Below are positions 34,910-61,552 of a stretch of 64,000 nt of DNA, piece after piece; position 1 is the first letter of the stretch, and every line of letters starts with the position of its first letter. The position numbers and the translations under genes were made by a program. The notes under the pieces were generated by a model that was not told the origin of the DNA, did no database searches, and saw only the letters and a list, made by a program, of their open reading frames with translations. This DNA is from a virus, in IMG/VR virus record IMGVR_UViG_3300042691_007361, positions 42,796-106,795 of that record; one strand, 5' to 3'.

Positions 34910-37210
34910 TTAGTAGAACATGAATGGGAATACATTTGCTCCCATTACATAAATACCACCCCCATCTTTGCTATACTGCATATTGTCTAGTAAAGCTTGA
35001 TAATCAATACCAGATGAAGAAGTAGATCCTTTCATTGCTTCTTTAGCTGCAACAATTGCATCTTTAGGATCAAAACCTGCTTCAATATAATCATTAAGCA
35101 AATCATTAAATGTTTGAGTTCTTTCCGGTGTATTATCTTTACCTCCTTGGAATATAACAGTACCTGTTGCAGGATCAATATCATACTGCTCAGACATAGC
35201 GTTTACCATTGCTAGGTCAGATGCATTCTTCCAACCTGTAGCCATTGCTTGACGTATATTAGCATTGGCAGCACGCTTAGAATTATCATATTGCTGATTC
35301 ATTAGATTAGTTTGATCATAGAGTTTTGTTGCAATCTCTTGATTCTTTAATCTTTCTTGATTTCTAATACCAGCATTAGCTTGTGCATATTGATTTGCAA
35401 TAGCTACGTTTTGGTTGTTGTATGAAGACATCAGGTCTACTACGTTCTTAGCAAGTTGTCCTTGCATACCCATAGCTCTTGCTGATGTAAGTTGTGGAGA
35501 TCCTGTAAATTGAGTTAGGTTCTGTTGAGCAATATTTGCTTGTTCTGCTAAAGCAGCAGCAGGTCTAGTTACATCTAAGTATCTTGGTTGTGCTTCTTCT
35601 AAATCAACTCTTGGAGCCCAAGGATATTGTTTTCTTAAACTTGCTCTATCACCAAATGCTCCGGCAAGATTCATAACATCTGGAGCCATCCAGCTTGCTT
35701 TTGTTTCTCTTGGATATTGATAATTATCTATATAGTCTTGATCTACATCAGTATCATCTCCTTCATCAGTAGTTGTAGTAGTTGTAGTTTTATCATCAGC
35801 TTTTTTACCAGCATCCTTCATTACATACTCAGTGTACATTTCAGGATTAGCAGGATCTTCATTAAAGTAGAGTTTATCACCTTGCTTAATAGCATTAGGT
35901 TCTTTCATCTTCTTCTCATACTCTTCTTTAGAAAGCTCTTTAACTTGTGTATCAAGTGCACGGTACCACCACTCATTATCTTTGTATGCAGTCTTAATTT
36001 TATCTGGAGTAAGTTTTCCATCAGCTAGTGCAGCTTTTGCACCGGCTGTAGTTTTAGGATATCCTGTAGGAATAACTTTTAATAACTCTCTGTTAGGTTG
36101 ATGTGACTTAGTAGTCATGTAATCAACCAATAGATCTGGATTAGTTTCTGCAATCTTAGCTTGAAGTTCACCAGCAGCTTTTTGAATATCAGCTTTAGTA
36201 ACTGATCCTTTAAGCTGCGGAAGACCATATTTCTTTCTAAATGCATTAAGACGTACAACACCTTTAGGTGTGTAAGCTTCATTCATTTTATATGGCGGCT
36301 CAACTTCAGCACCTCCTTTAGCTTTTATTAGACCGCCTTCTGCATACTCATCTTGGGTATCATAGTCTTGATAGAATGGCATACTGTAACCACCCATGTT
36401 CATACCATAGGCCGCCATTGGTGCTTCACCTGACATCTCAGGTGACATAGCAATTTGCTCACCATTAGGCATTTGAGTAGGCATGCTTTCATCCAATCCT
36501 ACTTCTTCTTGTGGTTCTGCTGTTTCTTCTTCTGTTGTTTCTTGTTCCTGTTTAGCAAATCTTGGTTTATACTTAGGCATTACCTGCTCTTCAGTAATCT
36601 GATTTGATTGCATAAAAGGTTGAGCAATAAGCGGTACACCTTGAGGAAATCCTTTTTTACCTTCTTGTGCAACTGCTAAAGCTCCAAGCTTCATTGTATA
36701 GTTACGGATCATTAACTCTGCTGTCTTTCTATCAACAGCATCAGAGTCCGGATCTTGTAAAATCTTTCTATACTTATTTATATCATATTGCTTAGCAAGA
36801 TCAGCAGGAGTATATGATCCAGATGTCTTACCAAACTTCTTAAGAATATCAGGATTCTTAATCTTCATTGACTTAGTATCACTGAAGATAAAAGTATCAT
36901 CTGGTAGATTAAGTGGTGTACCACCTTGGCTATGACGTTTACCTCCTGCAATATAGGTTTCAATCATTCCATCACCATTCAGGTCACCGGCAACAACTTC
37001 ACCTTTCTCAACTTCTACATTAGATTTTTCTCTTGGATCTGGTTGTAATGTCTTTCTTGTATCAACAGCTTTCTCACCAATGTACTGATCAATATCAGAA
37101 CCACCCATTGCAGTAGGTTGAATAGACAGAGCTCCTGTAGAAGTTTGCTGTCCTGTCTTTACACCTCCTAAAGCTCTATTAGGAAGTTTCTTTATTCTTA
37201 CTTGTTGCAT
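34910..37210 (-). CDS. probable internal virion (cargo) protein
   Basis: 766 aa. NVEVEKGE...GKRHSQGGTPL...FIFSD domain, Q/N-rich coiled C-terminal half and several xxGG motifs. Confidence 0.65.
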   Translation of the reverse strand: MQQVRIKKLPNRALGGVKTGQQTSTGALSIQPTAMGGSDIDQYIGEKAVDTRKTLQPDPREKSNVEVEKGEVVAGDLNGDGMIETYIAGGKRHSQGGTPLNLPDDTFIFSDTKSMKIKNPDILKKFGKTSGSYTPADLAKQYDINKYRKILQDPDSDAVDRKTAELMIRNYTMKLGALAVAQEGKKGFPQGVPLIAQPFMQSNQITEEQVMPKYKPRFAKQEQETTEEETAEPQEEVGLDESMPTQMPNGEQIAMSPEMSGEAPMAAYGMNMGGYSMPFYQDYDTQDEYAEGGLIKAKGGAEVEPPYKMNEAYTPKGVVRLNAFRKKYGLPQLKGSVTKADIQKAAGELQAKIAETNPDLLVDYMTTKSHQPNRELLKVIPTGYPKTTAGAKAALADGKLTPDKIKTAYKDNEWWYRALDTQVKELSKEEYEKKMKEPNAIKQGDKLYFNEDPANPEMYTEYVMKDAGKKADDKTTTTTTTDEGDDTDVDQDYIDNYQYPRETKASWMAPDVMNLAGAFGDRASLRKQYPWAPRVDLEEAQPRYLDVTRPAAALAEQANIAQQNLTQFTGSPQLTSARAMGMQGQLAKNVVDLMSSYNNQNVAIANQYAQANAGIRNQERLKNQEIATKLYDQTNLMNQQYDNSKRAANANIRQAMATGWKNASDLAMVNAMSEQYDIDPATGTVIFQGGKDNTPERTQTFNDLLNDYIEAGFDPKDAIVAAKEAMKGSTSSSGIDYQALLDNMQYSKDGGGIYVMGANVFPFMFY

Positions 37211-37211
37211 A

Positions 37212-40200
37212 TTATACGTATTCTAATTCACCACCATCCTCAAGAAACTTCTGAATCATCTCAGGAGTCATCCACATATACTCTCCAATCTCATTATCAT
37301 ATACTGGACCACCCTGCTGATAGATGTTACCGCCATACTTAACAGATTGTCTCTGACCCATATCTGGTGTTTCTAATCCACTGTTAGTAATAATCCAACC
37401 TTTATCAATTGATGCTTGAGCATCTTCATTTCTCCAAGATTTATCTTGTCTAGGAGAATCAAACCATCCTGCAATTGTATTTCCTGCAGCATTTGTCCAA
37501 TCCATAAGCAATCTTCTTTTTGCTGCATTAGCATCCCAATCACCTTTAGTATTATAATCTACAGATACATCATCATATTCTTTTCTTTGAGAGAAGTCAG
37601 TTAGATCTTCTTTAGGTACTACACCTTCATTTACATAACTTCCTTCTGTTCCCATTTTTACTCCAGACTTCTCATTAGTCAATTGATTTTGTCCACTATA
37701 AACAAAAGGATTATCTAACTCTGATGAACCTAAATCAAACTGTCTTTGTTGAGCTCTAAACCTTGGATCATAGTTTACTGGTGTGTCTTCATCAAGATCA
37801 TTATCATATCCTGTGTAAGCTTTAGGCATTGTCATAGTACCACCGTATGCCATGTAACCACCATCTTTTGCATACTTATATAATAAAGCATTTCTAAGAT
37901 CTCTGTTCTGAATACTTTTTATATAGTCTAATCTTTGTTTAGATGTTTTTAATAATCTCATTGATCTATCAATAGCCGGATCTATCTTGTAGTTTTTATA
38001 CGTATCTTTAAACACAGCTGGCTCATCACCCATTGCATTTTGTTTGAGATCCATTAATTCTCTCCAAGCAGCACCTTGTCTATTTTGTTCTTTAGCTTTT
38101 TCAGTTGGTGTAAGATTAGAAGAATTATTTTGTTCAACATTTTTCTTTGAAACAATAGGCTTTGCTTGTTCTTGTTCAACAGGTTTATTAGACTTAGTAG
38201 GAACAGTTTTATTTCCATATTCCTGAATCTTCTGTCCTAAATTTCTCTGAGTGGTGTTTGCCTGTGCAGCTGCTCTACGTTGAGCTTCCGCTCTTTGTTG
38301 TGCAATAACTTGTTGTTGACGTGCAGCTGCTTCTTGTGGAGTTAAAACAGGAGTACTTGCGCTACCAAGAAGTTCTTGACCCGGTTCCCAATTATATTGT
38401 TGTTGACCATAGAAATCTGGATTTTGCTCCATCATTCTTTGAAGCTCAGCTTGTTGTAAATCATAAGCACCTTGATCACCCACTTGCTGCATATATTCAT
38501 CTTGTGCTGTAGGTAAACCAAGTAAACCTAATCCACTACCTCTTAAATCTTGTTCTCTTTGTTGTTGAGCAAGTGCTGCTGCATCTTCTTCACTAGCTTG
38601 GTCATAATACATAGGACCAGTTTGTCCTGGAGCTAGTCTTGTTTGAGACGGCAATAATAATGGTTGCGCAGATCTAGTAGGTAAACTACCTATTGGACTT
38701 TCTACTGGTCTCTGTGGTATTAACTCATCTTCATTACCTTGAATTGCTTGCGCGCCTCTTGTAGGAAGACTATATCCAGCCATGTCACTAAATGTTCCAG
38801 CATTTTGTATCTCTGGAAACTCTGTATCTACAGCAGGTGTTGATTGATTAAATGCAAATGTACTATCCGGAGTTGTTGCATAAGGGCTTTCATCAGGATA
38901 GTATCCATAAATCTTTTTGTAATTCTCATCCCATTTATCATGTGGCATACCAGAAACTTTATCAGCTTTTGATTCAAATGGTCTAAGTTTAGAACCTAGC
39001 CATGCTAATGGACCAAACTGAGAATCAATTGCTGTATCAGATCTTCTACCTGACATGCCAGAAGATTGAGATCTATTAAATAAACCTTGACGTGTTGGTG
39101 CAACTTGATCCATTGATCTTCCATCAAGCGTCATACCAGCATCAGTAAAGTTTAATCTTTTACTTAGCGGGTCTCTTTCTACTTGATAGTTAACAGTATA
39201 CTTTTTAGGCATTCCTTTATATGGACCAAAGGCTTTTGTCTTTTTAACATCAATGTTTTTTAGTTTAGCATTATCTAGAGCACCTGTATAAGTTTGGTTA
39301 CTACCGGTCATATAAGGCATTCCTTTTTGCTTAGTTCTAAACGCAGGACCATAACCATATCCCATATAACCTTGTTCTCCAGGTTGTGGGTTAAAGTTAT
39401 CTCTTATAGGTTGTCTATTAATTATTGGTCTATCACTTGCAAAACTTAAATCAGTTAAACTAATATCTGGTGTGCCACTTCTTGCTTCATTCCAAGTTTC
39501 TGCATCTTGTTGATTTACCAATTTTGTATTTCCATTATTATCTGAAATGGTAATCATACCTGGTTGTGCTTTTGGTAAATAACCACCATATGCAAAATAT
39601 GGATCACCAGTTAAGTCACCTTGGTCATCACCTCCATACAGAAACTTATAAAGACCGGAATCTTGATCTGTAAATCCTCCACCTTGGAATTTTTCACCTA
39701 AACCAATTGTTTGGCGTGGAGCTGTTCTAGATACAGGAACATTCATATTGGTAGGTTGCACAAAGCCTCTTAGGTTTTCAGGATTTAGTGCTCCTTTAAT
39801 ATCATTACCTACACTATTCAAAAATTCTTTTGAAGTAATGTATTGATTTAATGGTACACCTTGACTTCCATATACAGGTGCTGAAGAACGTCCTGTTGCC
39901 ATTGGGCCTGGATTAGCATCAGACATTGTATAAGTTGAACCTGGAGCAAGTTGTGCCATTGATGGCTTAGTGGATCTCTCAATATTTTTTACACGGTTAG
40001 GGTCAGAAACCTCATACCATTGTACATTCTTTTTATCCTTAGTAGTAAAGTTAGGAGATACAAACCACTTATTACCTCTTTGTATATAAGCACGGCTTTT
40101 ATCTTGTCCTGCAAATCTTACTGATGATGGATCATATCCTTTCCAAAAACCTTTAAATGATGGACTAGCTTTAGACGGTGCATATTCTTCTGTACCTGCA

Positions 40201-41450
40201 CCTGCTCCAGATGACGCTGCTCCACTTCCAGATTTACCTGACCCAGAACCTTTTCCAGAAACAACTTGGATATCATTGATATCTACATCTACTTCATCAG
40301 CTGCAGCTTGTGCAGCAGCTTCTGCTTCAGTTTGTTTCTTTTCTTCTACACCTTGATCAACAGTTCCTTCTTCTGCAGCGTTTACTTCGTCTTTTATCTC
40401 CTCTTCTTTGTTTATAATTTCCTGCTTGATTGTATTCTCAGCAGTTTGAGGATTGTTTACTACATCATCTGCAAATGTAATTGAGTACTCTTTTGGTCTA
40501 CCAAATAAACCTGTTCTACGTACATCTATATTAGCCATCTTTGGTCCTCTATAGTAGCTACCGTCTGCAGGCATCTGACCTTGTCCAAAAGCTCCAACTA
40601 AATCTGTATAATCATATGCTCCAGGAAGCATTGGACCACCAGGCATACCTGCAAAACCAATAGGAAGTTGACCAACCATACGGTTCATTCTCCTATTCAT
40701 TCTTCTCATCTGACCTCTACGCATACCTCCAAACTGTGCATAGTCCATATCTTGTTCTTGATAATATGACTCATCACCACCAATTGGAGTAGTAAGCATT
40801 TTGTACATTTCTTCAGCATCTTGTTTTGCAAGATTGAGAGAACCATCCGTTTCAACAGCTGTAGTAAATGCAGCTAGCCCATCTTTTCTTTTATTGTCTG
40901 GATCAGTTGAATCTACTCTTGATTGTTGAGAGTCACCTCCCATTTGTTTCTTTACTTGCTTAAGTACATTTTTTACAAATGTTCTTTTAGAAGGTACACC
41001 ACCATTTCTTTCTATAATTTGACTAGCTGCCTCTGTGTCATCACTATAGTCAGGTTCATTATAGTCAGCATACATTTGTTGCATTGCATCACTACGTGCT
41101 TCTTCTTCTGCACGCTCTAAAGCAGATTGCTCTTCAGCAACTGAAGAATCAATAGCAGCTTCATCAGCTGTAATATCTGCATACGCATCTTCATCTGCAG
41201 TAGTAAGTGACTCATTAAGATACTGCTGATCATTTACAAACTCTTGTGTATTATTAGATATTAGTGTTACTGTATCTTCATCAACACCAATTTGTCTAAG
41301 TGCATTTTCAGCATCTTCAATAGAAGAACCTGGCTCAGAAAGAGCCGTCATGTATATTGATGTAAGCTGATCAGGAGTAAACTGTGCAGACTGCTGACCT
41401 CCTGCTGCAAACTTATTTGTTGGTTTATATATTCTTACTCTTTTCTTCAT
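37212..41450 (-). CDS. large low-complexity probable internal virion protein with about 12 xxGG motifs
   Basis: 1412 aa, G/Q/P-rich and apparently disordered. Confidence 0.65.
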   Translation of the reverse strand: MKKRVRIYKPTNKFAAGGQQSAQFTPDQLTSIYMTALSEPGSSIEDAENALRQIGVDEDTVTLISNNTQEFVNDQQYLNESLTTADEDAYADITADEAAIDSSVAEEQSALERAEEEARSDAMQQMYADYNEPDYSDDTEAASQIIERNGGVPSKRTFVKNVLKQVKKQMGGDSQQSRVDSTDPDNKRKDGLAAFTTAVETDGSLNLAKQDAEEMYKMLTTPIGGDESYYQEQDMDYAQFGGMRRGQMRRMNRRMNRMVGQLPIGFAGMPGGPMLPGAYDYTDLVGAFGQGQMPADGSYYRGPKMANIDVRRTGLFGRPKEYSITFADDVVNNPQTAENTIKQEIINKEEEIKDEVNAAEEGTVDQGVEEKKQTEAEAAAQAAADEVDVDINDIQVVSGKGSGSGKSGSGAASSGAGAGTEEYAPSKASPSFKGFWKGYDPSSVRFAGQDKSRAYIQRGNKWFVSPNFTTKDKKNVQWYEVSDPNRVKNIERSTKPSMAQLAPGSTYTMSDANPGPMATGRSSAPVYGSQGVPLNQYITSKEFLNSVGNDIKGALNPENLRGFVQPTNMNVPVSRTAPRQTIGLGEKFQGGGFTDQDSGLYKFLYGGDDQGDLTGDPYFAYGGYLPKAQPGMITISDNNGNTKLVNQQDAETWNEARSGTPDISLTDLSFASDRPIINRQPIRDNFNPQPGEQGYMGYGYGPAFRTKQKGMPYMTGSNQTYTGALDNAKLKNIDVKKTKAFGPYKGMPKKYTVNYQVERDPLSKRLNFTDAGMTLDGRSMDQVAPTRQGLFNRSQSSGMSGRRSDTAIDSQFGPLAWLGSKLRPFESKADKVSGMPHDKWDENYKKIYGYYPDESPYATTPDSTFAFNQSTPAVDTEFPEIQNAGTFSDMAGYSLPTRGAQAIQGNEDELIPQRPVESPIGSLPTRSAQPLLLPSQTRLAPGQTGPMYYDQASEEDAAALAQQQREQDLRGSGLGLLGLPTAQDEYMQQVGDQGAYDLQQAELQRMMEQNPDFYGQQQYNWEPGQELLGSASTPVLTPQEAAARQQQVIAQQRAEAQRRAAAQANTTQRNLGQKIQEYGNKTVPTKSNKPVEQEQAKPIVSKKNVEQNNSSNLTPTEKAKEQNRQGAAWRELMDLKQNAMGDEPAVFKDTYKNYKIDPAIDRSMRLLKTSKQRLDYIKSIQNRDLRNALLYKYAKDGGYMAYGGTMTMPKAYTGYDNDLDEDTPVNYDPRFRAQQRQFDLGSSELDNPFVYSGQNQLTNEKSGVKMGTEGSYVNEGVVPKEDLTDFSQRKEYDDVSVDYNTKGDWDANAAKRRLLMDWTNAAGNTIAGWFDSPRQDKSWRNEDAQASIDKGWIITNSGLETPDMGQRQSVKYGGNIYQQGGPVYDNEIGEYMWMTPEMIQKFLEDGGELEYV

Positions 41451-41466
41451 GATAGGGTATATAATA

Positions 41467-41498
41467 TAAATATAGTAAAATCTATGTTAATCAGTAAA
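41467..41498 (-). promoter_or_regulatory. variant promoter TTTA-N20-TATATTTA
   Basis: GATTTTACTATATT is identical to the copy at 57288-57301. Confidence 0.6.
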
Positions 41499-41508
41499 CT
41501 TTATAAGT

Positions 41509-43968
41509 TTAGTCAAGATCTTCAATGATATAACCTTGTGCCTCTAATTCTCTTCTTCTTTCATCATCAATCTCCTCTTCCCAAACATCACCACCTTCTT
41601 GTCTTCCAGTCAATATTCTTGCTGCTGGGAATATACTTCTAAAACCTTCATAATCACCTTTATTAAGTTTACTTATATTATCAGCAAAAAATGCTGCTGC
41701 TGCAGGATTAGATGCATATAATGCTCTACCTGCTGGTCCAAACACTGGAGCTAAACCTAAACCTGCATTGCCATATTGATATCCAATATTTTTTAAATCC
41801 TCATACTTTTGTTCCCAAGGTTTATCACTTGTAGCGGCAGCTACGGCATTTGATAATGATGGTGCATCTTTTAAAGCTACTCCTGTTCTTAGAACAGTTG
41901 CATTTCTTAATACATCAGCAACAGAAAAATTTCTTGCATTACCAATACTTCTTTGATTATTTAATAAAGGTCCTGCCACAGGTTTGCTTATACTAATTGG
42001 TAATGGTCTAGATAGTGTAGGTTTACTTGCTGTTAAAGCAAATCTAGGTTTATCAAGAAAGTTTACAACACCTTGTGATTTTTCTTGTAATCCTTGTAAA
42101 CCTGCTTTTCCCATTTCAGTTAGTTGAACTTTTGGTATTATCTTTCCTGGTGTTTTTGAAAGACGTGCTATAGGTGAATAGTCTAACATATTTAATCCTA
42201 TGTTACGTAAACCTTCTCCTACTGGTGTCTTTCCAGCAATCATTCTGTCTACTATACGTAATGAACTTGGATCATCTGGTCCTCCAAATCCTAGATCTCT
42301 TGCTGCACCTGAAGCTGGAAAATAAGCTTTGGCTAAATTTCCATATGTAGCTCCAGAATACTTTGATAAGAATGGAAGACTTGCTTTACTAAGAGCATTA
42401 ACTCCTTGAGCTCCTGCACCAAGCCCTGTTCCTGATGCTATAGCTAATGCTAAATTTCCAGCTCCGCTAGCAACGTTACCTTTTGTAAAATCAACACCTG
42501 CTTTAGAAGCATATCTTAATGGATTATAATCATTAAGCCAAGGCAGCGCACCTTCAACACCATAACCTAATGCTCTATCATAGAATCTAGAATCCTCATA
42601 TTCTTCTGGATTAAGTGATCTATAACCTTGACCCATCAAACTTCTTTTACCTTCCAAAGTTCTCATGATTTGACCAGGTGCATCTGTTGTAAATGCTTGA
42701 AGTTCATTTAAAGCTCTATCAAAGTAATTTGCATTTTGATAAGCTTTTTCTTCACCTCTCTTCCAAATTCTGTATTCAGCGTCCTCAATATCTTCAAGTG
42801 CATTAGGATCACTGTATATCTTATTTAACAGCATTTGATTCATATCAGTATCTCCTGTCTGATCAAAATACCTGTTACCAAGTGTTTCTGCTGCAACTCC
42901 TCTATTTACTTTATTAGCAACAAAGTCTTCTATTGCTTTTTTATCTTCTAGTGGTGTAGAGCTTACGGGTACATCAATTTTATTAGGTGTTACATATGTA
43001 GATGATCCTGGTCCAGCTCCTGTAGCTTTGTTTAAAGCTGCTCTTTCTTGATTTGCTATCCTTTGTGCTTTAGCCTTATCTGATGTTTGCTTTATATTTT
43101 GAACTACTTGGTTTGGTGCAGTTTTTTGTTGTTGCTTAGCTCCTTGAAGTCTGTAACCTGCTTCTTGTAATAATCTATCATAGCGTTTAGTTATTTCTGC
43201 TTTTTGTGCTGCAGTTTTTGCATATGACAATTCTTTTGTTTTAGCTTCTTGTAAACCTTTGACTTCATCTTCAGAAACTCTTGTTCCTGTATTTAATCCT
43301 ACCTGTGCTTTTTGTAACATACCAATAGACTCTCCATATGTCCAATCACGGAGAACTTGTCTACGTTTATCTATATCAGTACTAAAGTCACCACCATTTG
43401 CATAATACTTAGAGTCTGGATCAAAGACTTTTCTTTTCTTAGACTTAGTCTTTTTAAGCAGTGGATTTTTTGTAAATAATTTATTTGTTGCTTGTAAACT
43501 TCTTGAGTATCCTTTTGATCCTTTTTTCTTTGGCATACTTGGTAGTTCCTGTACAACATACCCACCTTTTTTTAACTCTGCAATTTCTTCATCACTAAGA
43601 TCATACTCTCCACCATCTTCATAATCAGTCAAGTCTGGTATAGATATATCACCACCATATGCAGCCATAGGAAATTCATCTACATACTCTGATCCTCCAA
43701 ACCTATGGTTTCTTGTATCTCCTGCAGCAACAAATCTTTTTTCTCCATCAGATCCAACAGCAATTATATTCTGATCAGTTGGGTTATATATAGTATTACT
43801 TGGAATTCTATAATGCGTTCCTGCTGGCGGAGGTCCTTGTTTATAACCTTCATTAGATATAAATGGAAGTAACTTATTGTTATTAACAATTCTATCTTTC
43901 TTTTTTGCTGGAGCTTTAGTACTGTTCAAGTTCTTTGTAGCTTCAGAGAGTACTTTCTTATTATACAT
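41509..43968 (-). CDS. probable internal virion protein
   Basis: 819 aa with xxGG motifs and Gly/Ala hydrophobic segments. Coupled to the upstream tail gene by a TAATG overlap. Confidence 0.65.
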   Translation of the reverse strand: MYNKKVLSEATKNLNSTKAPAKKKDRIVNNNKLLPFISNEGYKQGPPPAGTHYRIPSNTIYNPTDQNIIAVGSDGEKRFVAAGDTRNHRFGGSEYVDEFPMAAYGGDISIPDLTDYEDGGEYDLSDEEIAELKKGGYVVQELPSMPKKKGSKGYSRSLQATNKLFTKNPLLKKTKSKKRKVFDPDSKYYANGGDFSTDIDKRRQVLRDWTYGESIGMLQKAQVGLNTGTRVSEDEVKGLQEAKTKELSYAKTAAQKAEITKRYDRLLQEAGYRLQGAKQQQKTAPNQVVQNIKQTSDKAKAQRIANQERAALNKATGAGPGSSTYVTPNKIDVPVSSTPLEDKKAIEDFVANKVNRGVAAETLGNRYFDQTGDTDMNQMLLNKIYSDPNALEDIEDAEYRIWKRGEEKAYQNANYFDRALNELQAFTTDAPGQIMRTLEGKRSLMGQGYRSLNPEEYEDSRFYDRALGYGVEGALPWLNDYNPLRYASKAGVDFTKGNVASGAGNLALAIASGTGLGAGAQGVNALSKASLPFLSKYSGATYGNLAKAYFPASGAARDLGFGGPDDPSSLRIVDRMIAGKTPVGEGLRNIGLNMLDYSPIARLSKTPGKIIPKVQLTEMGKAGLQGLQEKSQGVVNFLDKPRFALTASKPTLSRPLPISISKPVAGPLLNNQRSIGNARNFSVADVLRNATVLRTGVALKDAPSLSNAVAAATSDKPWEQKYEDLKNIGYQYGNAGLGLAPVFGPAGRALYASNPAAAAFFADNISKLNKGDYEGFRSIFPAARILTGRQEGGDVWEEEIDDERRRELEAQGYIIEDLD

Positions 43969-49274: not shown

Positions 49275-49275
49275 C

Positions 49276-51565: not shown

Positions 51566-51575
51566 ACCATACTAT

Positions 51576-51607
51576 TTAATATACAAAAAATTATGCACTT
51601 TAGCAAA
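51576..51607 (-). promoter_or_regulatory. variant promoter TTTG-N20-TATATTAA
   Basis: Same geometry as the other copies. A perfect TATATTTG also overlaps its -33 box (51604-51611). Confidence 0.55.
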
Positions 51608-51614
51608 TATACAT

Positions 51615-51685
51615 AAAATAGAAAACCCCGGGCTCATTTGCCCAGGGTCTCCACTTGTTAGCCACAGAAACCAACAAACTGCGAC
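51615..51685 (-). ncRNA. two-hairpin intergenic structure (terminator plus upstream stem-loop; candidate small RNA)
   Basis: GUCGCAG-UUUGUUGGUUU-CUGUGGC, then GGAGACCCUGGGC-AAAUGA-GCCCGGGGUUUUC-UAUUUU. The G:U pairs form only on the minus strand. Confidence 0.45.
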
Positions 51686-51691
51686 ATATCT

Positions 51692-52246: not shown

Positions 52247-52248
52247 GA

Positions 52249-53745: not shown

Positions 53746-53749
53746 ATAT

Positions 53750-53781
53750 ATAATATACTAATTAATTATTACAATTACAAC
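53750..53781 (-). promoter_or_regulatory. variant promoter GTTG-N20-TATATTAT (probably leaderless)
   Basis: Same geometry as the other copies. The ATG lies 4 nt after the octamer. Confidence 0.4.
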
Positions 53782-55153: not shown

Positions 55154-55161
55154 TATATTTG

Positions 55162-55347
55162 TTATTTACCTCTGTGTACTTTGTAATCTTTGCGTACTGG
55201 CTGGGCTTCTTTATTGGAAGTTTTCATTCCTTTAACTCCTGCTTCATACCTTGATATGCAATTATTACATACTGCAGCTCCATCTGAAGCTTTTCTTTTT
55301 TGACATCCACAAGAAAGTGATGCCTTACAATTTGAACATTGTGCCAT
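55162..55347 (-). CDS. small Cys-rich (CxxC, CGC, CxxC) protein
   Basis: The likely start is MAQCSNC at 55347, after the leader AAAACCAACAGAT. Confidence 0.65.
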   Translation of the reverse strand: MAQCSNCKASLSCGCQKRKASDGAAVCNNCISRYEAGVKGMKTSNKEAQPVRKDYKVHRGK

Positions 55348-55366
55348 ATCTGTTGGTTTTAGATAG

Positions 55367-55909
55367 TTAACAAGTTTTACAATCAAATTTATTTAAAAGC
55401 TTAATAGCATAGTTATATAGTGTCATACCTTTCTGTGGTTCTTGACAAAACTCTACTTTAGCTTTTGCTGCATCTAAATACATTCTGATTATTCTTAATC
55501 TTTCTAATCTCTCTTGTACTTTAGCAGTAGGCTCACATGCAGCCAAATCTAAATTACACATAGCTTTATTCCATCTGACTAAAGCTTGAGTAATTCTCAA
55601 ATGATTATACTCTACATAAACTAACTCATTTGGAGATACACTATACTTAATGATATAAATACCATCAGGTAAGTTTACATAAGTTTCTCCACAATTTACT
55701 GTTTGTAACTGTAGATCACATGCTGTAAGTATTTCAGTGAACTCAGCAGTTACATCTATTTGATTAGAATATGAGAAACCAGGTACTGTTACATTAAGTG
55801 TCTCACATGTAACAGGTACTATGTCAGCATAAATACTTGTATCATTAATTGATAGAATACAAGGATTCATTACTGTAGGTACCTCTAGACTTAATACATG
55901 ATTTGCCAT
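55367..55909 (-). CDS. probable structural protein
   Basis: 180 aa; LPDGIYIIKYSV beta domain followed by a helical C-terminus. Confidence 0.6.
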   Translation of the reverse strand: MANHVLSLEVPTVMNPCILSINDTSIYADIVPVTCETLNVTVPGFSYSNQIDVTAEFTEILTACDLQLQTVNCGETYVNLPDGIYIIKYSVSPNELVYVEYNHLRITQALVRWNKAMCNLDLAACEPTAKVQERLERLRIIRMYLDAAKAKVEFCQEPQKGMTLYNYAIKLLNKFDCKTC

Positions 55910-55922
55910 AAGTATAATAATT

Positions 55923-55960
55923 AAAAAGGGAGAGGAGTATGAAACTCTTCTCCCCTTTTT
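55923..55960 (-). terminator. intrinsic terminator (potentially bidirectional)
   Basis: AAAAA-GGGAGAGGAGT-atgaa-ACTCTTCTCCC-CTTTTT on the plus strand. Confidence 0.8.
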
Positions 55961-55979
55961 AGTTTGTTGTGATAATTAA

Positions 55980-57254
55980 TTACGGTAGTGGAGCTGGTAC
56001 CGGTGGTACAATCGGCTCACAATCAGTAACACATGACTCAACTTCAAGACCTGTACACTGAGAACAGTTCTCTAACCAAGTTTCTACAAATGTTTCAAAT
56101 GCTACAATCTGACCATCAGTAATAACTTCAAGTAAGTATTGATCATTATCAAATGTTCCAGAAGGGTTGTTGAAACGTGGAACACTGTGTAACAAGTAGT
56201 AACGTGTGTAAAGTGCATTACGGTTAACTGAGTTCAAGATATCATACCCTTGAGTAATCTCACGGATACGGAAATCTGAATGGAAGAAGTTCTGACGGTA
56301 AGACTCAGAAAGAATCAAGTCACGTACAACTGATTCTCCAAGACCCATTGCTTGTCTTCCTAAACACTCATTAACAATACAAATTCCAGAGAATGCACAA
56401 GGATCACCATTCAAATCTACTTCAGATGCATAAAGACGCACTGGCTCTTTTTCATAGAAGTCAGAGATTTGGAATGTACAGTTACCAAACTTAGTATCAA
56501 CATAAGCTCCGTAAAGGATCAAACCTGCACAGTCACCTTCTACAAATCCTGGAGATACATACTCATCCCAAGTATTAGCTGCTGGGTTACCAAATGTATC
56601 TAGAGTACCTGGAGCATAGTAGATTGTACCATCTGCTGCAGAAACTACTGGCAAGATAAATGGAGAGATAAGCGGAGAGTCAACAATCTGCTTAGCCCAC
56701 TCAATCATTACTAATGTAGAATCTACTGGTGTTGGAGCAATAGCTCCAGCAGGACAACATCCTGTGTAAGCAGAAACTGTTAAGTATGCATTGTGGTTCA
56801 AGAAACGTAGAGCTGGAGAACCTTTAACATCTAAACGTAGGTAGTATGTTTCACCACACAAGAAATCTGGGCAGCAATTTGCTGTTCCTTCATCTTGAGT
56901 ATAAGGTGTAGAACCAATGTTCAATACTGCTTGAGTAGGTTCACATGGATCAACACGGTAAAATTTGTTAACATACTTAGGATTGATTACTTTAGATTTA
57001 TTAGATTCTAAGTAACCTCCGTGGAAAGGTCCAATTTTGTCATTAGCCAAAACTGATCCTGAAGCAAGGATAAGCGGGCAACAGTTTGTAAGTGCTGCAT
57101 CAGTAGCTTGTACAATCCAAGTTTTTGGATCTACAAAACCAAACTGACCGGAAGCAAAAATGTTACCAGTTGTTCCAAGCTGTCCTTCATTCAATCCAGT
57201 GAAACCATCAGTTCCAAGGAAAGTCTTTTGAAAAGCGTGATTAAAATAAGCCAT
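55980..57254 (-). CDS. probable abundant structural protein
   Basis: 424 aa with its own promoter and terminator, in the capsid gene block. Confidence 0.6.
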   Translation of the reverse strand: MAYFNHAFQKTFLGTDGFTGLNEGQLGTTGNIFASGQFGFVDPKTWIVQATDAALTNCCPLILASGSVLANDKIGPFHGGYLESNKSKVINPKYVNKFYRVDPCEPTQAVLNIGSTPYTQDEGTANCCPDFLCGETYYLRLDVKGSPALRFLNHNAYLTVSAYTGCCPAGAIAPTPVDSTLVMIEWAKQIVDSPLISPFILPVVSAADGTIYYAPGTLDTFGNPAANTWDEYVSPGFVEGDCAGLILYGAYVDTKFGNCTFQISDFYEKEPVRLYASEVDLNGDPCAFSGICIVNECLGRQAMGLGESVVRDLILSESYRQNFFHSDFRIREITQGYDILNSVNRNALYTRYYLLHSVPRFNNPSGTFDNDQYLLEVITDGQIVAFETFVETWLENCSQCTGLEVESCVTDCEPIVPPVPAPLP

Positions 57255-57285
57255 TTTTCTTTTTATTAGTTAATAAACATATACT

Positions 57286-57317
57286 ATAATATAGTAAAAT
57301 CTTTTTACTCTTCCAAA
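57286..57317 (-). promoter_or_regulatory. variant promoter TTTG-N20-TATATTAT
   Basis: Exact 20-nt spacer; shares a 14-mer with 41469-41482. Confidence 0.6.
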
Positions 57318-57833
57318 TTATTTTAAGAAAAGTAATTTATATTTTGTTGAGTTAATTGAATCTTTTACAAGATCAAGGTTATTTACAATTTCAGAATAAG
57401 GTAACATACCTTGTAGTTTGTTAACCATCGCATAGATATCTCTTAGGTAACTTACACCATCTGCAACTGTATCTAATGTTCTAGGATTAACTTCTGTATA
57501 TGCAAGTAGTTTTTCTGCTGCTCCTTGATATCCTTCTACTAGTGTATCAGCATGATCAGGTAATGCATCATACAATTCATTAAGAGCTTTATGCGCAGCA
57601 TAAGATCCTGTACCTGTAACTTTTAAATGAAGTTTATGAAAACTTGTTCTAGCATTCATAAGTTCTGAAGCACATGCTGATACCATAGTATCTAATGAGC
57701 TACCACCAACACCGGCATTAGGAGTTGGTTGTGGTTTAGCAGGTTCTTCTTTTGGTTGATTTACAGTTACTTCTGGCCTACTTAGTTTTTTAACTGGCTC
57801 TGGGTTTCTTTTTAATAATCTATTGTTTTCCAT
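57318..57833 (-). CDS. Dps/ferritin-like four-helix protein
   Basis: FHKLHLKVTG...SYAAHKALNELYD...DTLVEGYQG...KYKL. Confidence 0.75.
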   Translation of the reverse strand: MENNRLLKRNPEPVKKLSRPEVTVNQPKEEPAKPQPTPNAGVGGSSLDTMVSACASELMNARTSFHKLHLKVTGTGSYAAHKALNELYDALPDHADTLVEGYQGAAEKLLAYTEVNPRTLDTVADGVSYLRDIYAMVNKLQGMLPYSEIVNNLDLVKDSINSTKYKLLFLK

Positions 57834-57838
57834 TATTA

Positions 57839-58537
57839 TTAATTGTTGCGTTCAGCTGTTTCTGTACCTCTTGAGAATTGATTTCCTGATTCAATATCTC
57901 CTGCTAGTATACTTACTGCTTCATCTATTATTACTTCTATTATATCATCTTTAAATTCACATTCTACATTTGTAGGTGATTGAACTCCGGTATATGGATC
58001 TACACAACCTTGTATCTGTATCTTTATTGGTTGTCTGTAATATGTTAATGCAGCTGAGTCAATTTGAAAGTCATTATTAGTATAAACATTGACAAAGTTA
58101 TTCTTAAGAGTAGCAAAAGTCTCAGCCCATTCAAAACTAGGTTGTTTTGATTTATCTCTCAGAAGTACATTTACATTAGCTTCCTCTGCTAGATATACTG
58201 TCATACGTCTGTTATCACAGCATTCTTTTTTAGCATAAACATCTACACGCTTCCATTGTAAATAGTTTGCCGGAATAGCTCCAGTGTAAAATACTTGCTG
58301 GTCGCTTACACTTAGAGGTTGTGTATTAAGAAGAACTTGTAAATCATCTTTTCTCCTATTTGATTCTTCATCACCTTCTCTAACTGCGTTAATCCCGTGA
58401 AGCTGTCTTCTTGTCCATTCTACTTGAGCTTTATTAAATGCCTCAACTATCTGCCAACATTCAATGTTGTCATAGTCCTGGCTATCTAACTTATTCAGGC
58501 GTTGTTTAATCTTTATGGACAGTACACTGTTTAACAT
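57839..58537 (-). CDS. head-tail ring / adaptor protein
   Basis: RLNKLDS...FNKAQ, PANYL, LTYYRQP and CEF...IIDEAV, plus gene order. Confidence 0.65.
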   Translation of the reverse strand: MLNSVLSIKIKQRLNKLDSQDYDNIECWQIVEAFNKAQVEWTRRQLHGINAVREGDEESNRRKDDLQVLLNTQPLSVSDQQVFYTGAIPANYLQWKRVDVYAKKECCDNRRMTVYLAEEANVNVLLRDKSKQPSFEWAETFATLKNNFVNVYTNNDFQIDSAALTYYRQPIKIQIQGCVDPYTGVQSPTNVECEFKDDIIEVIIDEAVSILAGDIESGNQFSRGTETAERNN

Positions 58538-58540
58538 CTG

Positions 58541-58675
58541 TTATTTATTTTTTGGAGTTCTAGGAATCATTTTTCTAAATTGACTCATAGCTTTACCAGC
58601 ATTCTTATAACCTTCTTCTTTAAGATTATTAAAATACTTTACTGCTCCTGGTTTTGAACTTTTCTTGCCTCCCAT
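58541..58675 (-). CDS. 44-aa basic protein (not in ORF track)
   Basis: MGGKKSSKPGAVKYFNNLKEEGYKNAGKAMSQFRKMIPRTPKNK* fills the gap with 2-nt and 3-nt spacers. Confidence 0.7.
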   Translation of the reverse strand: MGGKKSSKPGAVKYFNNLKEEGYKNAGKAMSQFRKMIPRTPKNK

Positions 58676-58677
58676 GA

Positions 58678-59424
58678 TTACTGATATTTTGCTTTGTTAG
58701 CAGCAACCTTCTTTTTGTTTGCTTCCACCTTAGCCTTATTAGCAGCAACTTTTTGAGCATTAGAACTAGCATTACTAGCTTTAGATGCATTTACCTTAGC
58801 AGCATTGCTGTATACTTTAACAGCATTGTCTTGTACTTTAGCTCTGTTTTCAGCTACCTTTTCTTCATTTTTATAATTTTTGAAGGTATTAGCATTTACC
58901 TTAGCTGTATTAACTGCTACTTTATTAGCATTTACTTTTGCTTTATTAGCATCAGCAGCTTTCTTTTTAGCATATGCTGAAGCAGCAACCGCTGCTGCTC
59001 CTCCGCCTCCCGCAGTACCTGCAACTTTAGCTATTGTTTTAAGAGCTGAGCTTTTCTTTTTAGGTGCTTCAGATGCAGAAGTAGAAGTAGAAGTAGACTT
59101 AGATTTATACTTAGACTCTAAAGTTTTAAGTTGTTCTTTAGCTTGTTTAAGTTGTTCATCAACTTTTTTGTATTTATTGTCAGCTTTAATCCTTTCAAGT
59201 TTTCTAGCAGTTTTACGTACTTTACTAGCATGTTTTGCAACACCCTGAGCAGCATCCATTTCTGCACCATAACTATGGTAACTTCTACCTGAAGCACTTT
59301 TTACTTTAGGTGCACCCATTTGAGTACGGTTTGCAATGATTGCTTTACGACCTGCACTTTTAACTTTTCTAATTGCTTTAGCTGACTTAGTAAGACTAAC
59401 TAATGCTTTTCCTATTATTCCCAT
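58678..59424 (-). CDS. Lys/Ala-rich protein with VxxN heptad repeats
   Basis: 248 aa with repeated KVAAN/KVNAN units. Confidence 0.75.
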   Translation of the reverse strand: MGIIGKALVSLTKSAKAIRKVKSAGRKAIIANRTQMGAPKVKSASGRSYHSYGAEMDAAQGVAKHASKVRKTARKLERIKADNKYKKVDEQLKQAKEQLKTLESKYKSKSTSTSTSASEAPKKKSSALKTIAKVAGTAGGGGAAAVAASAYAKKKAADANKAKVNANKVAVNTAKVNANTFKNYKNEEKVAENRAKVQDNAVKVYSNAAKVNASKASNASSNAQKVAANKAKVEANKKKVAANKAKYQ

Positions 59425-59426
59425 GA

Positions 59427-59648
59427 CTATTTATTTTTATTTTTATTTTTTACACTACCACCTTTCTTAAGACCAAACTCTTTAGCAATGGCACGTCTTT
59501 CTTGCCTTGCTTCTTTCTGACCCTGTCTATGCTCTTTACTTAAAGACTGCTTTGCTGTAGCTAAAACACTTTTAACTACAGCTTTGCGCATCTTTTTCTT
59601 TTCAGCTTTTGCTTTATCCTTTTCAGGATCTCTACCAATACCAGCCAT
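59427..59648 (-). CDS. small basic protein
   Basis: 73 aa, Lys-rich, contains LKKGG. Confidence 0.7.
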   Translation of the reverse strand: MAGIGRDPEKDKAKAEKKKMRKAVVKSVLATAKQSLSKEHRQGQKEARQERRAIAKEFGLKKGGSVKNKNKNK

Positions 59649-59655
59649 TACTTAA

Positions 59656-60444
59656 TTATTTTTTCTTAGTCATTCCTTTAACAATAACTTTATCTACAGC
59701 TTTGTCATATCTTTTTTGAAGACCTTTTCCTACTGTCTTTCCTGCTGTGGTTTTCTTTTCAATCTTAGTCCCAAGTCTAGTAAGTTTTCTACTAGTAACT
59801 GGTCCACCATCTTCTTTTTTAGATAGAGTTCTTTTAATTACTCTTCCAGGTTCTCTTTGACCTATAGCAGCATACCCTTGATCTCCTGCTGATCTAACTT
59901 TACCAGCTTTAGGAGAACGTTGTACTTTAACAGTAGCACCAAACTTAGCTTTAGGTTTTTTGATTACACCTTTTGCCATTAAGATATCTTTTGCAGTTAC
60001 TTTACCATCTCCACTCATATCAGGAAAACTTTTCTTAATACCACCTTTTTTTGCTATACCGTACTGGCCAGCCTGACCCATGTTTTCTTGTGGCATACCA
60101 TACATATATGTAGGTGCTTTTTTAATAGCAGAACCACCTAGGTTCATTTTCTTTGCTCCTCCTTTTGACATACTTTTGCCACATTGAGCACATCCTAATT
60201 TTTTCATGGCACCACCTTTTTTTTGATATGGTATAGGTGATGAAGTTCCATTGATTATGTCTCTTACCTTACTGACTTTTTCACTTACAGGTCCAGCAGT
60301 TCCCTTTATTGAATAAGGACCTTCATAATCAGGCCCAACAGGCCCAGTAGGTTTTGGTATAACTGTAGGTTTTGGTCTAGGGTCAGGCTTTTGACTATAT
60401 GTTCTTTTTGTTTTTACCGTAATGGGAGTTTTATTCTTTCTCAT
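59656..60444 (-). CDS. basic protein with five xxGG motifs, CxxC and an EF-hand-like loop
   Basis: QKKGG, MSKGG, MNLGG, AKKGG, KEDGG; DMSGDGKVTAKD. Confidence 0.7.
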   Translation of the reverse strand: MRKNKTPITVKTKRTYSQKPDPRPKPTVIPKPTGPVGPDYEGPYSIKGTAGPVSEKVSKVRDIINGTSSPIPYQKKGGAMKKLGCAQCGKSMSKGGAKKMNLGGSAIKKAPTYMYGMPQENMGQAGQYGIAKKGGIKKSFPDMSGDGKVTAKDILMAKGVIKKPKAKFGATVKVQRSPKAGKVRSAGDQGYAAIGQREPGRVIKRTLSKKEDGGPVTSRKLTRLGTKIEKKTTAGKTVGKGLQKRYDKAVDKVIVKGMTKKK

Positions 60445-60460
60445 CTTTTATATAATTAAA

Positions 60461-60811
60461 TTAACAATTCCATTTTCTTAAAGAAAGAGCCTTTCTTGTT
60501 GGTCTTCCTTTTTCATCTTTCATAGGGCCTGGCATTCCAGACATCCTAGCACAGAAACTCTTACGTCTCTTAGCATCTTTACTTCCAGCTTTAAGCTTAG
60601 AAGGTTTAGTAGTAACAGCAGTCTGTAACTTACTACCTGGATTAGCTGCTCTATAGCTAGCTACTCCTTTAGCATTAAGTCCTCCTGTAGGATTCTTACC
60701 TTCCTTGCGCGTCCATGCAGGAGTAGAGCCACCAGATTTCATCTTTGGAGTCTTACCAGCTTTCTTCATTGAGATAGCTATTGCTGCTTGTTGTGCTCTA
60801 CTTTTTGCCAT
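60461..60811 (-). CDS. small basic phage protein (DUF6321-like)
   Basis: PAWTRKEGKNPTGGLNAKG...RRKSFCARM...SLRKWNC; family name recalled from memory. Confidence 0.7.
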   Translation of the reverse strand: MAKSRAQQAAIAISMKKAGKTPKMKSGGSTPAWTRKEGKNPTGGLNAKGVASYRAANPGSKLQTAVTTKPSKLKAGSKDAKRRKSFCARMSGMPGPMKDEKGRPTRKALSLRKWNC

Positions 60812-61058
60812 TACCTTTTCCTTTATACTTGTAATCAGGATTATCCTTATGCCATTTCTTTGTTGCCGCTACTCCCTGCTTAACAGTTTTTGCTTTTGCT
60901 TTTGCAGTAAGATCTATTGTATCCCACTGACCTTTATCTTTGGTGGGGTGGTTGACCATTATATGACCAACCTTTCCTTCACCTTTTTTTATAGTCTTCT
61001 TATAGACTACATGTTTTTCACCACCGGCAGTAACTTTAACTTTCTTAGGTGCTGCCAT
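60798..61058 (-). CDS. small basic protein
   Basis: 86 aa, Lys-rich, overlaps the downstream gene start. Confidence 0.7.
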   Translation of the reverse strand: MAAPKKVKVTAGGEKHVVYKKTIKKGEGKVGHIMVNHPTKDKGQWDTIDLTAKAKAKTVKQGVAATKKWHKDNPDYKYKGKGNGKK

Positions 61059-61060
61059 GA

Positions 61061-61546
61061 TTACTTCTTTTTAGCCATTGCCTTAAGAGTTTTAGCTAAT
61101 GCTTTTCTCTTAGGTGTACAAGTTGGTTTAGTCATTGGAGTACAATATCCTTTATGTTTGGGATTGATTGCTTTTTGTATCCATTTTTTATCTCCTGTAG
61201 ACCCACCTTTTTTTGCCATTACTGGTGTAGAAGAACTACCATCATTCATTCCTGAATCAGGAGCAAGAGTACCTCTATCCATAGACTGACCCATCTGTGC
61301 TTTTTTTACAGGACCACCAGATTTTAAATATGTCTGACTCTTTGGTATTTTTTTATAAAACTTAGCAAGTTCTATATCAGCTTTATTAATCCTAACCTTT
61401 GCTTTGTTCTCTGCTACCTTTTTTCTGTTAGCTTCAACTTTTTTAGCATTCTCAGCCACCTTCTTTTTATTGGCAGCTTCTTTCTTAGCTTTTTCTTTAC
61501 CTTGCTTAATTATAGTAGAGGGTAAATGTCCTATTCCATGTGGCAT
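61061..61546 (-). CDS. basic protein with VxxN heptads, xxGG motifs and KWIQKAI module
   Basis: 161 aa. Confidence 0.7.
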   Translation of the reverse strand: MPHGIGHLPSTIIKQGKEKAKKEAANKKKVAENAKKVEANRKKVAENKAKVRINKADIELAKFYKKIPKSQTYLKSGGPVKKAQMGQSMDRGTLAPDSGMNDGSSSTPVMAKKGGSTGDKKWIQKAINPKHKGYCTPMTKPTCTPKRKALAKTLKAMAKKK

Positions 61547-61552
61547 GACTTA

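Follow-up and report, generated by a model that had tools for sequence, protein, structure and literature searches.

A di-glycine motif shared by cargo and small basic proteins of a crAss-like phage lineage, and its putative role in processing or loading

Introduction

Head-internal proteins of phage T4 carry capsid-targeting sequences and gp21 sites (L/I-x-E), and those of phiKZ carry gp175 sites (S/A/G-x-E). Adenovirus adenain recognizes (M/L/I)XGG↓X (the arrow marks the cut) in the basic core proteins pVII, pX and pVI, pS273R of African swine fever virus (ASFV) cuts at GG↓X, double-glycine leaders of the pattern LSxxELxxIxGG are cut by C39 peptidase domains, and encapsulin cargo-loading peptides bind a shell of the HK97 fold. 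Here we describe a five-residue motif that ends in two glycines (GG) and recurs in otherwise unrelated proteins encoded by a stretch of 64,000 nucleotides from an uncultured crAss-like phage (positions 42,796 to 106,795 of IMG/VR virus record IMGVR_UViG_3300042691_007361; hereafter, the window). The motif is real, short and linear, and under selection at the level of the protein; it occurs in internal virion proteins of this crAss-like lineage, and its carriers are three cargo proteins (C1, C2 and C3) and about half of the small lysine-rich proteins of the capsid block.

In phage crAss001, the genes after the muzzle gene encode cargo proteins that are stored in the head and tail and ejected ahead of the DNA, and the same work leaves it open by what means ~5 MDa of cargo protein enter the crassvirus head and tail and are ejected in sequence (PMC10172136); crassvirus ejection proteins have also been described as still unresolved (PMC13434306). 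The window covers the rightmost 64 kb of a genome of 106.8 kb (~89% complete), and its minus strand runs, in transcription order, from the capsid block through tail genes, a muzzle-like gene and the genes of C1, C2, C3 and C4 (the last of 981 amino acids (aa); for the other lengths, see Table 1) to three giants (1946, 3935 and 2001 aa, the virion RNA polymerase among them). As in the cargo region of other Crassvirales, C1–C3 lie directly after the muzzle gene and ahead of the RNA-polymerase-associated giants, and the order muzzle–C1–C2–C3–C4 is kept in 32 related viral contigs. The muzzle-like gene also matches large proteins at the same position in crAss-like and related phages, and its product connects the lineage to cultured phages. 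The capsid block holds a run of small lysine-rich open reading frames (ORFs; 58678-62660), and the record ends within this block (63738-64000); because the contig stops there, this copy of the genome lacks the genes for capsid, scaffold-like and portal proteins, along with any protease gene that lies among them. Three relatives (L042–L044) encode, upstream of a 338-aa gene, proteins of 538 aa (probably the major capsid protein), 417 aa (acidic) and ~637 aa.

Motif definition and enrichment

A sequence-only reading of the window had listed pentapeptides of a permissive form (a hydrophobic residue, Lys, Arg or Ala, any two residues and GG) as a candidate cleavage or packaging code. All of these peptides were found in the translated minus-strand ORFs at the named genes, including the KAxxG forms KAQVG, KAQPG, KAQMG, KAYTG and KAKFG. 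The signal is real but narrower than it had been written: about half of the listed GGs have the refined context, and five basic ORFs and the giants are without it. On the basis of the homologue logos described below, the refined motif spans five positions, [F/M/Y]-[Q/K/A]-x-G-G, with the variant L-P-K-A-Q-x-G; the KAxxG variant corresponds to this element written as L-P-K-A-Q-x-G(G).

In shuffle tests (2000 shuffles, both global and inside 40-aa windows), the glycine pair by itself was barely enriched: plain GG occurs 32 times in C1–C3 against 23–27 expected (p 0.04–0.15), and per-protein GG counts in the window approximate the square of the Gly frequency. What exceeds composition, and survives the local shuffles, is the residue context before GG. 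In the cargo and basic proteins the loose form [FLIVMYWAKR]xxGG is found 35 times against 16–18 expected (p<0.0005), an aromatic/Met context accounts for 19 cases against 5–7 expected, and KKGG and KAQxG occur 5 and 3 times (0.5 and 0.2 expected). The predicted enrichment beyond composition was thus borne out for the context, whereas bare GG stays near composition.

A scan form refined on homologues, [FYMWLI][QKA]xGG, occurs in this genome 8 times in C1–C3 (1.2 expected) and 3 times in the basic ORFs at 59427-61546 (0.4 expected), against 4 times in all other ORFs of the 106.8 kb (5 expected); that is, 11 sites fall in the ~3,700 aa of C1–C3 and the basic ORFs, and 4 in ~29,000 aa elsewhere. 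In the same scan the giant virion proteins were not enriched (2 versus 1.7 expected), and five basic ORFs (58678, 61553, 62077, 62421 and 50981) had no motif. The idea of one phage-wide signal therefore had to be given up, as the RNA-polymerase-associated giant cargo and several basic ORFs do not carry it.

A cause at the DNA level (an internal Shine–Dalgarno-like GGAGG or a recombination linker) was ruled out, as Gly codon pairs at GG track codon usage (GGT-GGT 20, GGA-GGT 8, GGA-GGA 5 and so on) and the nucleotide flanks are 32% identical. Tandem clustering was rejected as an argument for avidity: spacings of up to 8 residues number 66 against 68 expected, and those of up to 16 are only modestly enriched (160 versus 131). 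A likeness to the Pup C-terminus (YVQKGGQ) and to KKAGGST of ribosomal protein L27 found nothing in its support and was dropped.

Conservation and placement in the cargo proteins

The same restriction to C1–C3 is seen across relatives. In ~23 of the 32 syntenic contigs, the scan form is enriched 6.8-fold in C1, 11.5-fold in C2 and 3.9-fold in C3 (z 8–38), against 1.5-fold in the muzzle protein and 0.7-fold in C4; the shared kinship of these sequences means that the z-scores overstate independence, and leaves the contrast between adjacent genes unaffected. GG pairs are invariant in alignments of 20–35% mean column identity, whereas C4, which served as the control, shows no conserved GGs in its alignment. 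The expectation that the motif would be kept in homologues while its flanks diverge was confirmed for C1–C3, where the flanks mostly change; conserved GGs stand as islands in poorly conserved flanks in all three proteins, and the motif recurs in several unrelated basic modules. In the C1 alignment, GG135, GG192 and GG792 are conserved at 0.84–0.96 and their flanks at 0.22–0.27. Among the 57 homologues of C2 (25–84% identity), nearly all GGs are retained in the 13 full-length relatives, down to 33% identity, while adjacent residues vary. An alignment of 16 C2 sequences (26% mean column identity) has 35 invariant columns, which include seven GG pairs (150/151, 171/172, 591/592, 606/607, 1203/1204, 1373/1374 and 1406/1407), and a second alignment of 26 sequences gave the same pattern. 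The conserved C2 GGs lie 0–6 columns from the edges of conserved blocks that adjoin regions varying by up to 300 residues in length, and the site at 1203/1204 is an eight-residue conserved island between variable regions. In C3 the flanks of the conserved GGs are conserved at 0.2–0.4, the exception being GG96 (flank 0.67), inside a well-conserved folded domain.

The residues around GG are restricted on both sides. Across 219 GG sites in 16 divergent homologues of C2, the logo shows, relative to the first Gly, F at 7x (or M) at −3, Q at 4.9x at −2, Y at 6.2x at −1 and K or Y at 3–3.7x at −4. After GG, at the 207 strict sites in the C1–C3 proteins of relatives, Pro is found a single time (1/207, 0.1x); K, R, G and T are also under-represented, whereas there is an excess of E, S, D, Y and Q. 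The near-absence of Pro and the residue bias after GG are what would be expected if an enzyme or partner binds the site in an extended conformation, and F, M or Y at a fixed distance, an adjacent Q or K and a restricted residue after GG point to extended-peptide recognition by one partner.

The claim that the motifs sit near termini and at module boundaries was upheld by alignments and models, with sites within 10–30 aa of the N-terminus and 5–20 aa of the C-terminus. The C2 N-terminus is always MKKRVRIYK, followed by GG within 3–25 residues; the C3 family begins with x-KVKIKKLPxAxxGG and ends with KKGG-x5-YVMGSNVFPFMFY; and the C-termini of C1 and C2 share an acidic mini-module made of GG, an acidic stretch and [LM]-[ST]-x-E-E-I-x-x-[FL]-x-x-x-G-[GY]-x-[LIV]-E-[EY]-[LI]. 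AlphaFold models of C3 and of a 734-aa C2 homologue (L021), built with 24–26 aligned relatives and of low overall confidence, place the motif sites in segments of low pLDDT, predicted to be disordered. Seven of the nine C3 sites (15, 36, 273, 292, 299, 689 and 750, with GGG750-752 taken as one) are in blocks of pLDDT 27–39, and only GG89/96 are within the folded domain 50–212; in the C2 homologue the block of the C-terminal GG has a mean pLDDT of 61, and every other conserved GG lies in a block averaging ~54 or lower. In the latter model, helices stop 1–2 residues ahead of both GGs of the GG-helix-GG segment, the N-terminal RVRIY is a short strand, and the C-terminus reads helix, GG, strand.

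Small basic proteins and module junctions

In the basic clusters of five relatives, 28 basic ORFs hold 34 motifs against 2.1 expected (~16-fold), and the 22 non-basic neighbour ORFs hold none. The logo of these sites has M at 10.8x at −3, K or Q at −2 and S or T at +1, and many of the ORFs terminate in KKGG-[SV]-x-K-x-KKK. The basic ORFs (58678-62660 and those of L040–L044) are mosaics of about eight tiny modules that are fused, split and reordered differently in each relative (DUF6321, DUF5872, EKHVVYKK..GEGKVG, DKKWIQKAINPKHKGYCTP, HPGFKAVQSKIAAKQG, KLGCAxCGG and a dockerin/EF-hand-like SFPDxxxDGKIT), and the motif directly precedes each shuffled module. Stand-alone module ORFs have Met-Ala in place of GG, as seen when MAKTAAWTRKEG is compared with ...KMKTGGSTPAWTR and MAEKKDKKWIQ with ...MKKGGVVKDKKWIQ; in fusions, KMKxGG stands before the DUF6321 and 'DKKWIQKAI' modules, which as separate ORFs start exactly at the GG position. 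Viral contigs gave 25 distinct contexts upstream of DUF6321: a GG-S/K-T-P/A junction is present in 13 (12 of them K-M-x-x-GG), 4 are ORF starts at the junction point and 8 are different fusions without GG.

DUF6321 is also found at the C-terminus of unrelated 400–490-aa proteins in other viral contigs. Three basic ORF regions (58678-59424, the N-terminal part of 61061-61546, and 61553-62065) share heptad-like KV(A/E)(A/E)N(K/A)(A/K) runs; the ORFs with these repeats have either no GG motif or only a GGGG run, and seem to be a class separate from the GG-bearing ones.

Related features in cultured phages

The motif also reaches cultured phages. In Leptolyngbya phage Lbo-JY46, a 674-aa protein ends in ...FQQGG-YNLGEEIDLSPEEVAKLIELGYDFEVV and the next protein begins with MKIRIIGLPKAQIG. 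Gp041 of Cellulophaga phage phi17:2 has 14 GG against 7 expected, including NFQAGG, SYQNGG, TFQIGG and KFQSGG. The C1 counterpart of crAss001, gp45, has 21 against 13.3 expected, with FSAYGG, MFAYGG, AFAEGG and a KKAKGG-KVRTKKKK tail, while gp46 to gp50 of this phage show no GG excess; the gp45 C-terminus (L045, 1988-4516), KKAKGG-KVRTKKKKGLTYG, resembles the tails of the basic ORFs described above. Of the gp45 segments resolved by cryogenic electron microscopy (cryo-EM), 214–245 starts 4 residues past FSAYGG209 and 425–552 stops 10 residues short of MFAYGG562.

Features of the cargo and basic proteins

Table 1. Motif-bearing and associated features of the window (window positions).
Feature	Position	Strand	Remark
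Muzzle-like protein, 1768 aa	43968-49274	-	Match to virion structural PHROG 37948
C1-like cargo protein, 819 aa, first gene after muzzle	41509..43968	-	Synteny in 32 loci
C1 internal acidic mini-module copy, YEDGG-EYDLSDEEIAELKKGG-YVVQEL	43534..43623	-	Aligns with C-terminal mini-modules of relatives' C1 and C2
C1 segment YANGG ... LQKAQVG, motif and KAQxG variant	43294..43404	-	
C1 C-terminal mini-module, RQEGG-DVWEEEIDDERRRELEAQGYIIEDLD	41512..41604	-	
C2-like cargo protein, 1412 aa, 15 GG	37212..41450	-	57 homologues
C2 N-terminal leader, MKKRVRIYKPTNKFAAGG	41397..41450	-	M1 K2 K3 R4 V5 R6 Y8 invariant in 16 sequences, 25-52% identity
C2 150-172, GG-helix-GG (ERNGG...KKQMGG)	40935..41003	-	G150/151 and G171/172 invariant, at block edges
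C2 586-623, three motifs 15-16 residues apart (KFQGGG, KFLYGG, YFAYGG), then LPKAQPG	39582..39695	-	
C2 1194-1214, AKDGG-YMAYGG-TMTMPKAYTG	37809..37871	-	G1203/1204 invariant
C2 C-terminus, VKYGG, YQQGG and mini-module MTPEMIQKFLEDGGELEYV	37215..37343	-	Homologue model: helix and strand
C3-like cargo protein, 766 aa	34910..37210	-	GG36, GG96, GG292 and GG750 conserved at 0.92 or more
C3 N-terminal leader, MQQVRIKKLPNRALGG ... TAMGG	37100..37210	-	Family consensus M-x-x-KVKIKxLPxAxTGG...SFGGAD
C3 linker with MNMGG, YAEGG, KAKGG	36311..36418	-	Predicted disordered
C3 C-terminal tail, SKDGGGIYVMGANVFPFMFY	34913..34972	-	G750/751 invariant; family consensus KKGGxxxxGYVMGSNVFPFMF
Basic ORF, 73 aa, end FGLKKGG-SVKNKNKNK	59427..59648	-	KKGG and basic tail also end several basic ORFs of relatives
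Basic ORF, 262 aa, QKKGG, MSKGG, MNLGG, AKKGG, KEDGG, KAKFG	59656..60444	-	
Basic ORF, 116 aa: N-terminal piece, PKMKSGG junction, DUF6321 module	60461..60811	-	Pfam PF19846, E 1e-24
Basic ORF, 161 aa, YLKSGG-PVKKAQMG and MAKKGG-STGDKKWIQKAINP module	61061..61546	-	
HExxH (HEYAH) in 2001-aa virion protein	13483..13497	-	No Pfam peptidase match
HExxH (HEAWH) in 3935-aa virion RNA polymerase protein	23406..23420	-	No Pfam peptidase match

The terminal modules of the cargo proteins have features of their own. A profile of the acidic mini-module, compared with PDB and Pfam, gave only generic 'LTxEEIxxF' helix matches and a weak one to SutA-RBD (an acidic RNA-polymerase-binding peptide); weak SutA-RBD matches occur in 13 of 29 mini-module copies (best E 0.006) and are probably compositional. 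Cargo C-termini are an acidic helix and strand (..GYIIEDLD and ..GGELEYV; C1 41512-41604 and C2 37215-37280), and the product of the next gene starts with an invariant basic strand (MKKRVRIYK in C2, 41397-41450; VRIKKLP in C3, 37100-37210), a pairing of acidic end and basic start that is also seen in Leptolyngbya phage Lbo-JY46. Such complementary strands might join C1, C2 and C3 head to tail in gene order, in a chain that we liken to the one through terminal cysteines that has been proposed for the three giants. In three relatives (L006, L010 and L012) the C1 mini-module is absent and the C2 leader is retained.

C2 also has two copies of a conserved β-hairpin-like unit, IDV(R/K)xxGxFGRPK(E/K)YT(I/V)x(F/Y), at residues ~308–326 (40473-40529) and ~733–762 (39165-39254), predicted as strands with pLDDT 70–79 in the homologue model; megablast and tblastn found no match of C2 among GenBank phages. 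The best-conserved and best-modelled part of C3 is residues 50–212 (36575-37063; pLDDT ~80), with E66, E68, E71, H93, S110 and D111 invariant and the signature GxRHSxGGxPLNLPDDxFIFSD. This part has no Pfam, PDB-sequence or Foldseek match and could be an enzyme or a portal-binding domain. A Foldseek search with the C3 model returned nothing at E<=0.001, and the wider structure-search results were dominated by a long helix (526–663). Homology of C3 58–183 with the portal-bound domain of crAss001 gp45 was rejected, as it gave only short collinear BLAST fragments and an hhalign probability of 0.3; the faint collinear likeness falls on gp45 463–540.

Possible functions of the motif

The sharing of the motif by otherwise unrelated internal proteins, together with its placement in linkers, behind leaders and before tails, gives it the layout that one would expect of a code for processing or loading, a view that the data above support, and we infer that it is punctuation read by a single partner during head assembly. 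To say that this reading means cutting is speculative; we nevertheless take the motif sites as putative processing sites, with a probability of roughly 35%. A putative protease would cut at or adjoining GG, the leaders of C2 (MKKRVRIYK..GG) and C3 (VKIKKLP..GG) would be removed by the cut, having served as loading signals, and small basic modules encoded as fusions would also be released. The behaviour at module junctions, the leader-plus-GG layout, the dominance of the non-prime side and the exclusion of Pro speak for processing, and the precedents of T4, phiKZ and adenovirus would favour it by analogy. Fused polyprotein cleavage has been proposed for crAss-like phages, whose virions contain a zincin-like domain protein (10.1101/2020.03.07.982082).

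A number of observations weigh against processing. The cognate protease for which the sequence-only reading had proposed a search of the full genome did not emerge: searches covering this genome and 4–5 relatives, two of them 100% complete, gave no match at E<=1 to Pfam Peptidase_C39 (PF03412; own genome and 5 relatives), C48 (PF02902; own genome only), C5 adenain (PF00770; 5 genomes), the S77 and S78 prohead proteases (PF03420 and PF04586; 5–6 genomes) or ClpP (own genome and 4–5 relatives). The two HExxH segments put forward as candidates match no Pfam peptidase model, and the C3 model has no clear fold match. The crAss001 structure paper does not mention proteolysis, and there gp45 425–552 is resolved as one continuous chain (PMC10172136), which spans GG427, GG434 and GG447, although these three are inside a folded domain and the full motif context is absent from them. 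The bulky residue stands at P5 (−3 from the first Gly) rather than P4 in both the cargo and the basic logos; sites of good context with Pro after GG exist (YQQGGP, LKSGGP and MKKGGP); cleavage at all sites would split C2 into more than 10 pieces, some of 6–16 aa; and the leaders and tails to be discarded rank among the most conserved parts. Published crAss001 mass spectrometry cannot decide the matter, because it comprises one excised gel band and tryptic peptides, none of which crosses a motif.

Specificity, disorder, terminal placement and the exclusion of Pro would equally fit a loading or docking peptide, that is, an uncut motif bound in extended form by a repeated site in the procapsid or tail lumen (on the major capsid protein, portal or ring proteins), where it would recruit and position cargo and basic proteins as encapsulin peptides do. 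We regard docking as unlikely, though a serious contender: with several copies in each protein, avidity would follow; a protease is not required, consistent with the searches above; and the ordered, bound gp45 segments of crAss001 start or stop a few residues from GG209 and GG562. However, motif positions are strongly conserved, whereas avidity repeats usually turn over; stand-alone modules (MAKTAAWTRKEG... and MAEKKDKKWIQ...) would not be loaded because they carry no motif; the giant RNA-polymerase cargo is without it too; and no binding partner was identified. A more passive role is also unlikely in our judgement, if worth stating: GG may stop a helix, or give a flexible hinge, where small modules meet in proteins that must be stored compactly and threaded unfolded through the portal and tail, the residues before it merely reflecting the ends of amphipathic helices or strands. 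Such punctuation needs no reader protein and suits sites at module edges, the helices that stop 1–2 residues before GG135, GG157 and GG728 in the C2 homologue model and the missing Pro after GG (a Schellman-type helix cap). Most sites, however, have no preceding helix (PKMKSGG, KFQGGG, YFAYGG and KYGG are short or strand-like), so that a pure helix C-cap, which suits three sites of the C2 homologue, was rejected; a hinge also leaves unexplained the preference for F, M or Y over L, I or V at −3 and for Met at 10.8x in Lys-rich proteins, and linkers of the phage's other proteins are without the motif.

It is improbable that the motif acts after ejection, as a peptide aimed at the host and recognized there by a factor of the envelope or cytoplasm (a chaperone, protease or cell-wall component) while the ejected proteins refold or are cleared. 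Crassvirus C1 and C2 are thought to exit the virion first and form a trans-envelope channel (PMC10172136), and phages of Flavobacteriia, Bacteroides and a cyanobacterium have kept the motif; its retention across host phyla, however, favours a phage-encoded partner, and no part in ejection is known for the small basic proteins. That the motif is a product of chance or composition, because Gly-rich low-complexity proteins hold many GG dipeptides, is very improbable indeed and was ruled out as an explanation: plain GG is near composition and the original pattern was very permissive, but the context enrichment survives local shuffles and recurs at 4–12-fold in C1–C3 and ~16-fold in the basic ORFs of relatives, and the invariance of GG pairs in divergent homologues, set against the C4 controls, refutes it.

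Comparison with known systems

Full-text literature searches for the motif, for crassvirus cargo cleavage and for GG-type phage maturation found nothing relevant within the library searched, and the motif is not described in the paper on crAss001 gp45 (PMC10172136). With the proteins described here gp45 shares the position after the muzzle gene and a GG excess, and its ordered segments are flanked by GG; no sequence homology of C1, C2 or C3 with gp45 was detectable, the C3 comparison being non-significant in both BLASTP and hhalign. Short N-terminal leaders that end in GG recall the double-glycine leaders of C39 substrates, and the mini-module M-T-x-E-E-I-x-x-F-L-A-x-G-G superficially resembles L-S-x-x-E-L-x-x-I-x-G-G. 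Membership of that class was rejected: the leaders MKKRVRIYKAGG and MYFKVKIKKLPQAKSGG do not fit LSxxELxxIxGG (hydrophobic residues at −4, −7 and −12), the register is off by 1–2 residues, and, unlike C39 leaders, the mini-module is C-terminal or internal and no C39 match occurs in six genomes.

Encapsulin cargo-loading peptides are alike in that they are short, sit on a flexible linker at one end of a protein and direct that protein into an HK97-fold shell; here the sequence differs, the copies are many, often internal and positionally conserved, and the binding is putative. As in T4 and phiKZ, unrelated internal, ejected head proteins share a short motif that stands behind an N-terminal leader, between what would be propeptide and mature part; the first eight residues of C2 were called invariant and the C3 leader is conserved, as in T4-type leaders. 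Unlike the sites of those phages, the motif is a bulky residue-Q/K-x-G-G with many internal sites per protein and no S77-type Pfam match in the genomes searched, and its cleavage is putative. With adenain and the ASFV protease, the system shares a hydrophobic residue before a di-glycine in basic, DNA-associated core and internal proteins, from which short basic terminal peptides would be released; it was not assigned to adenain or CE-clan sites, as the bulky residue is at P5 and not P4, no Pfam match was found to C5 in five genomes or to C48 in this genome, and the phage is tailed.

A short signature common to head-internal proteins is of an already known kind (T4, phiKZ and adenovirus), and what is new here is this signature, its lineage and the lack of a known reader among those searched for. 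Restricted as it is to cargo and basic proteins, the five-residue signature offers a mutable handle on cargo loading and a simple sequence rule to flag internal virion proteins in genomes of uncultured crAss-like phages, between which the cargo proteins have no detectable homology. Our broader proposal is tentative and, on balance, doubtful: crAss-like phages of freshwater and the sea, and probably the Crassvirales of the gut, may use a di-glycine 'internal-protein code' that marks all head-interior cargo, its reader being a new maturation protease or a receptor in the capsid lumen. If this is true, the code would yield protamine-like basic core peptides and trimmed ejection proteins, and these would be the first tailed phages with a system in the style of adenovirus or encapsulins.

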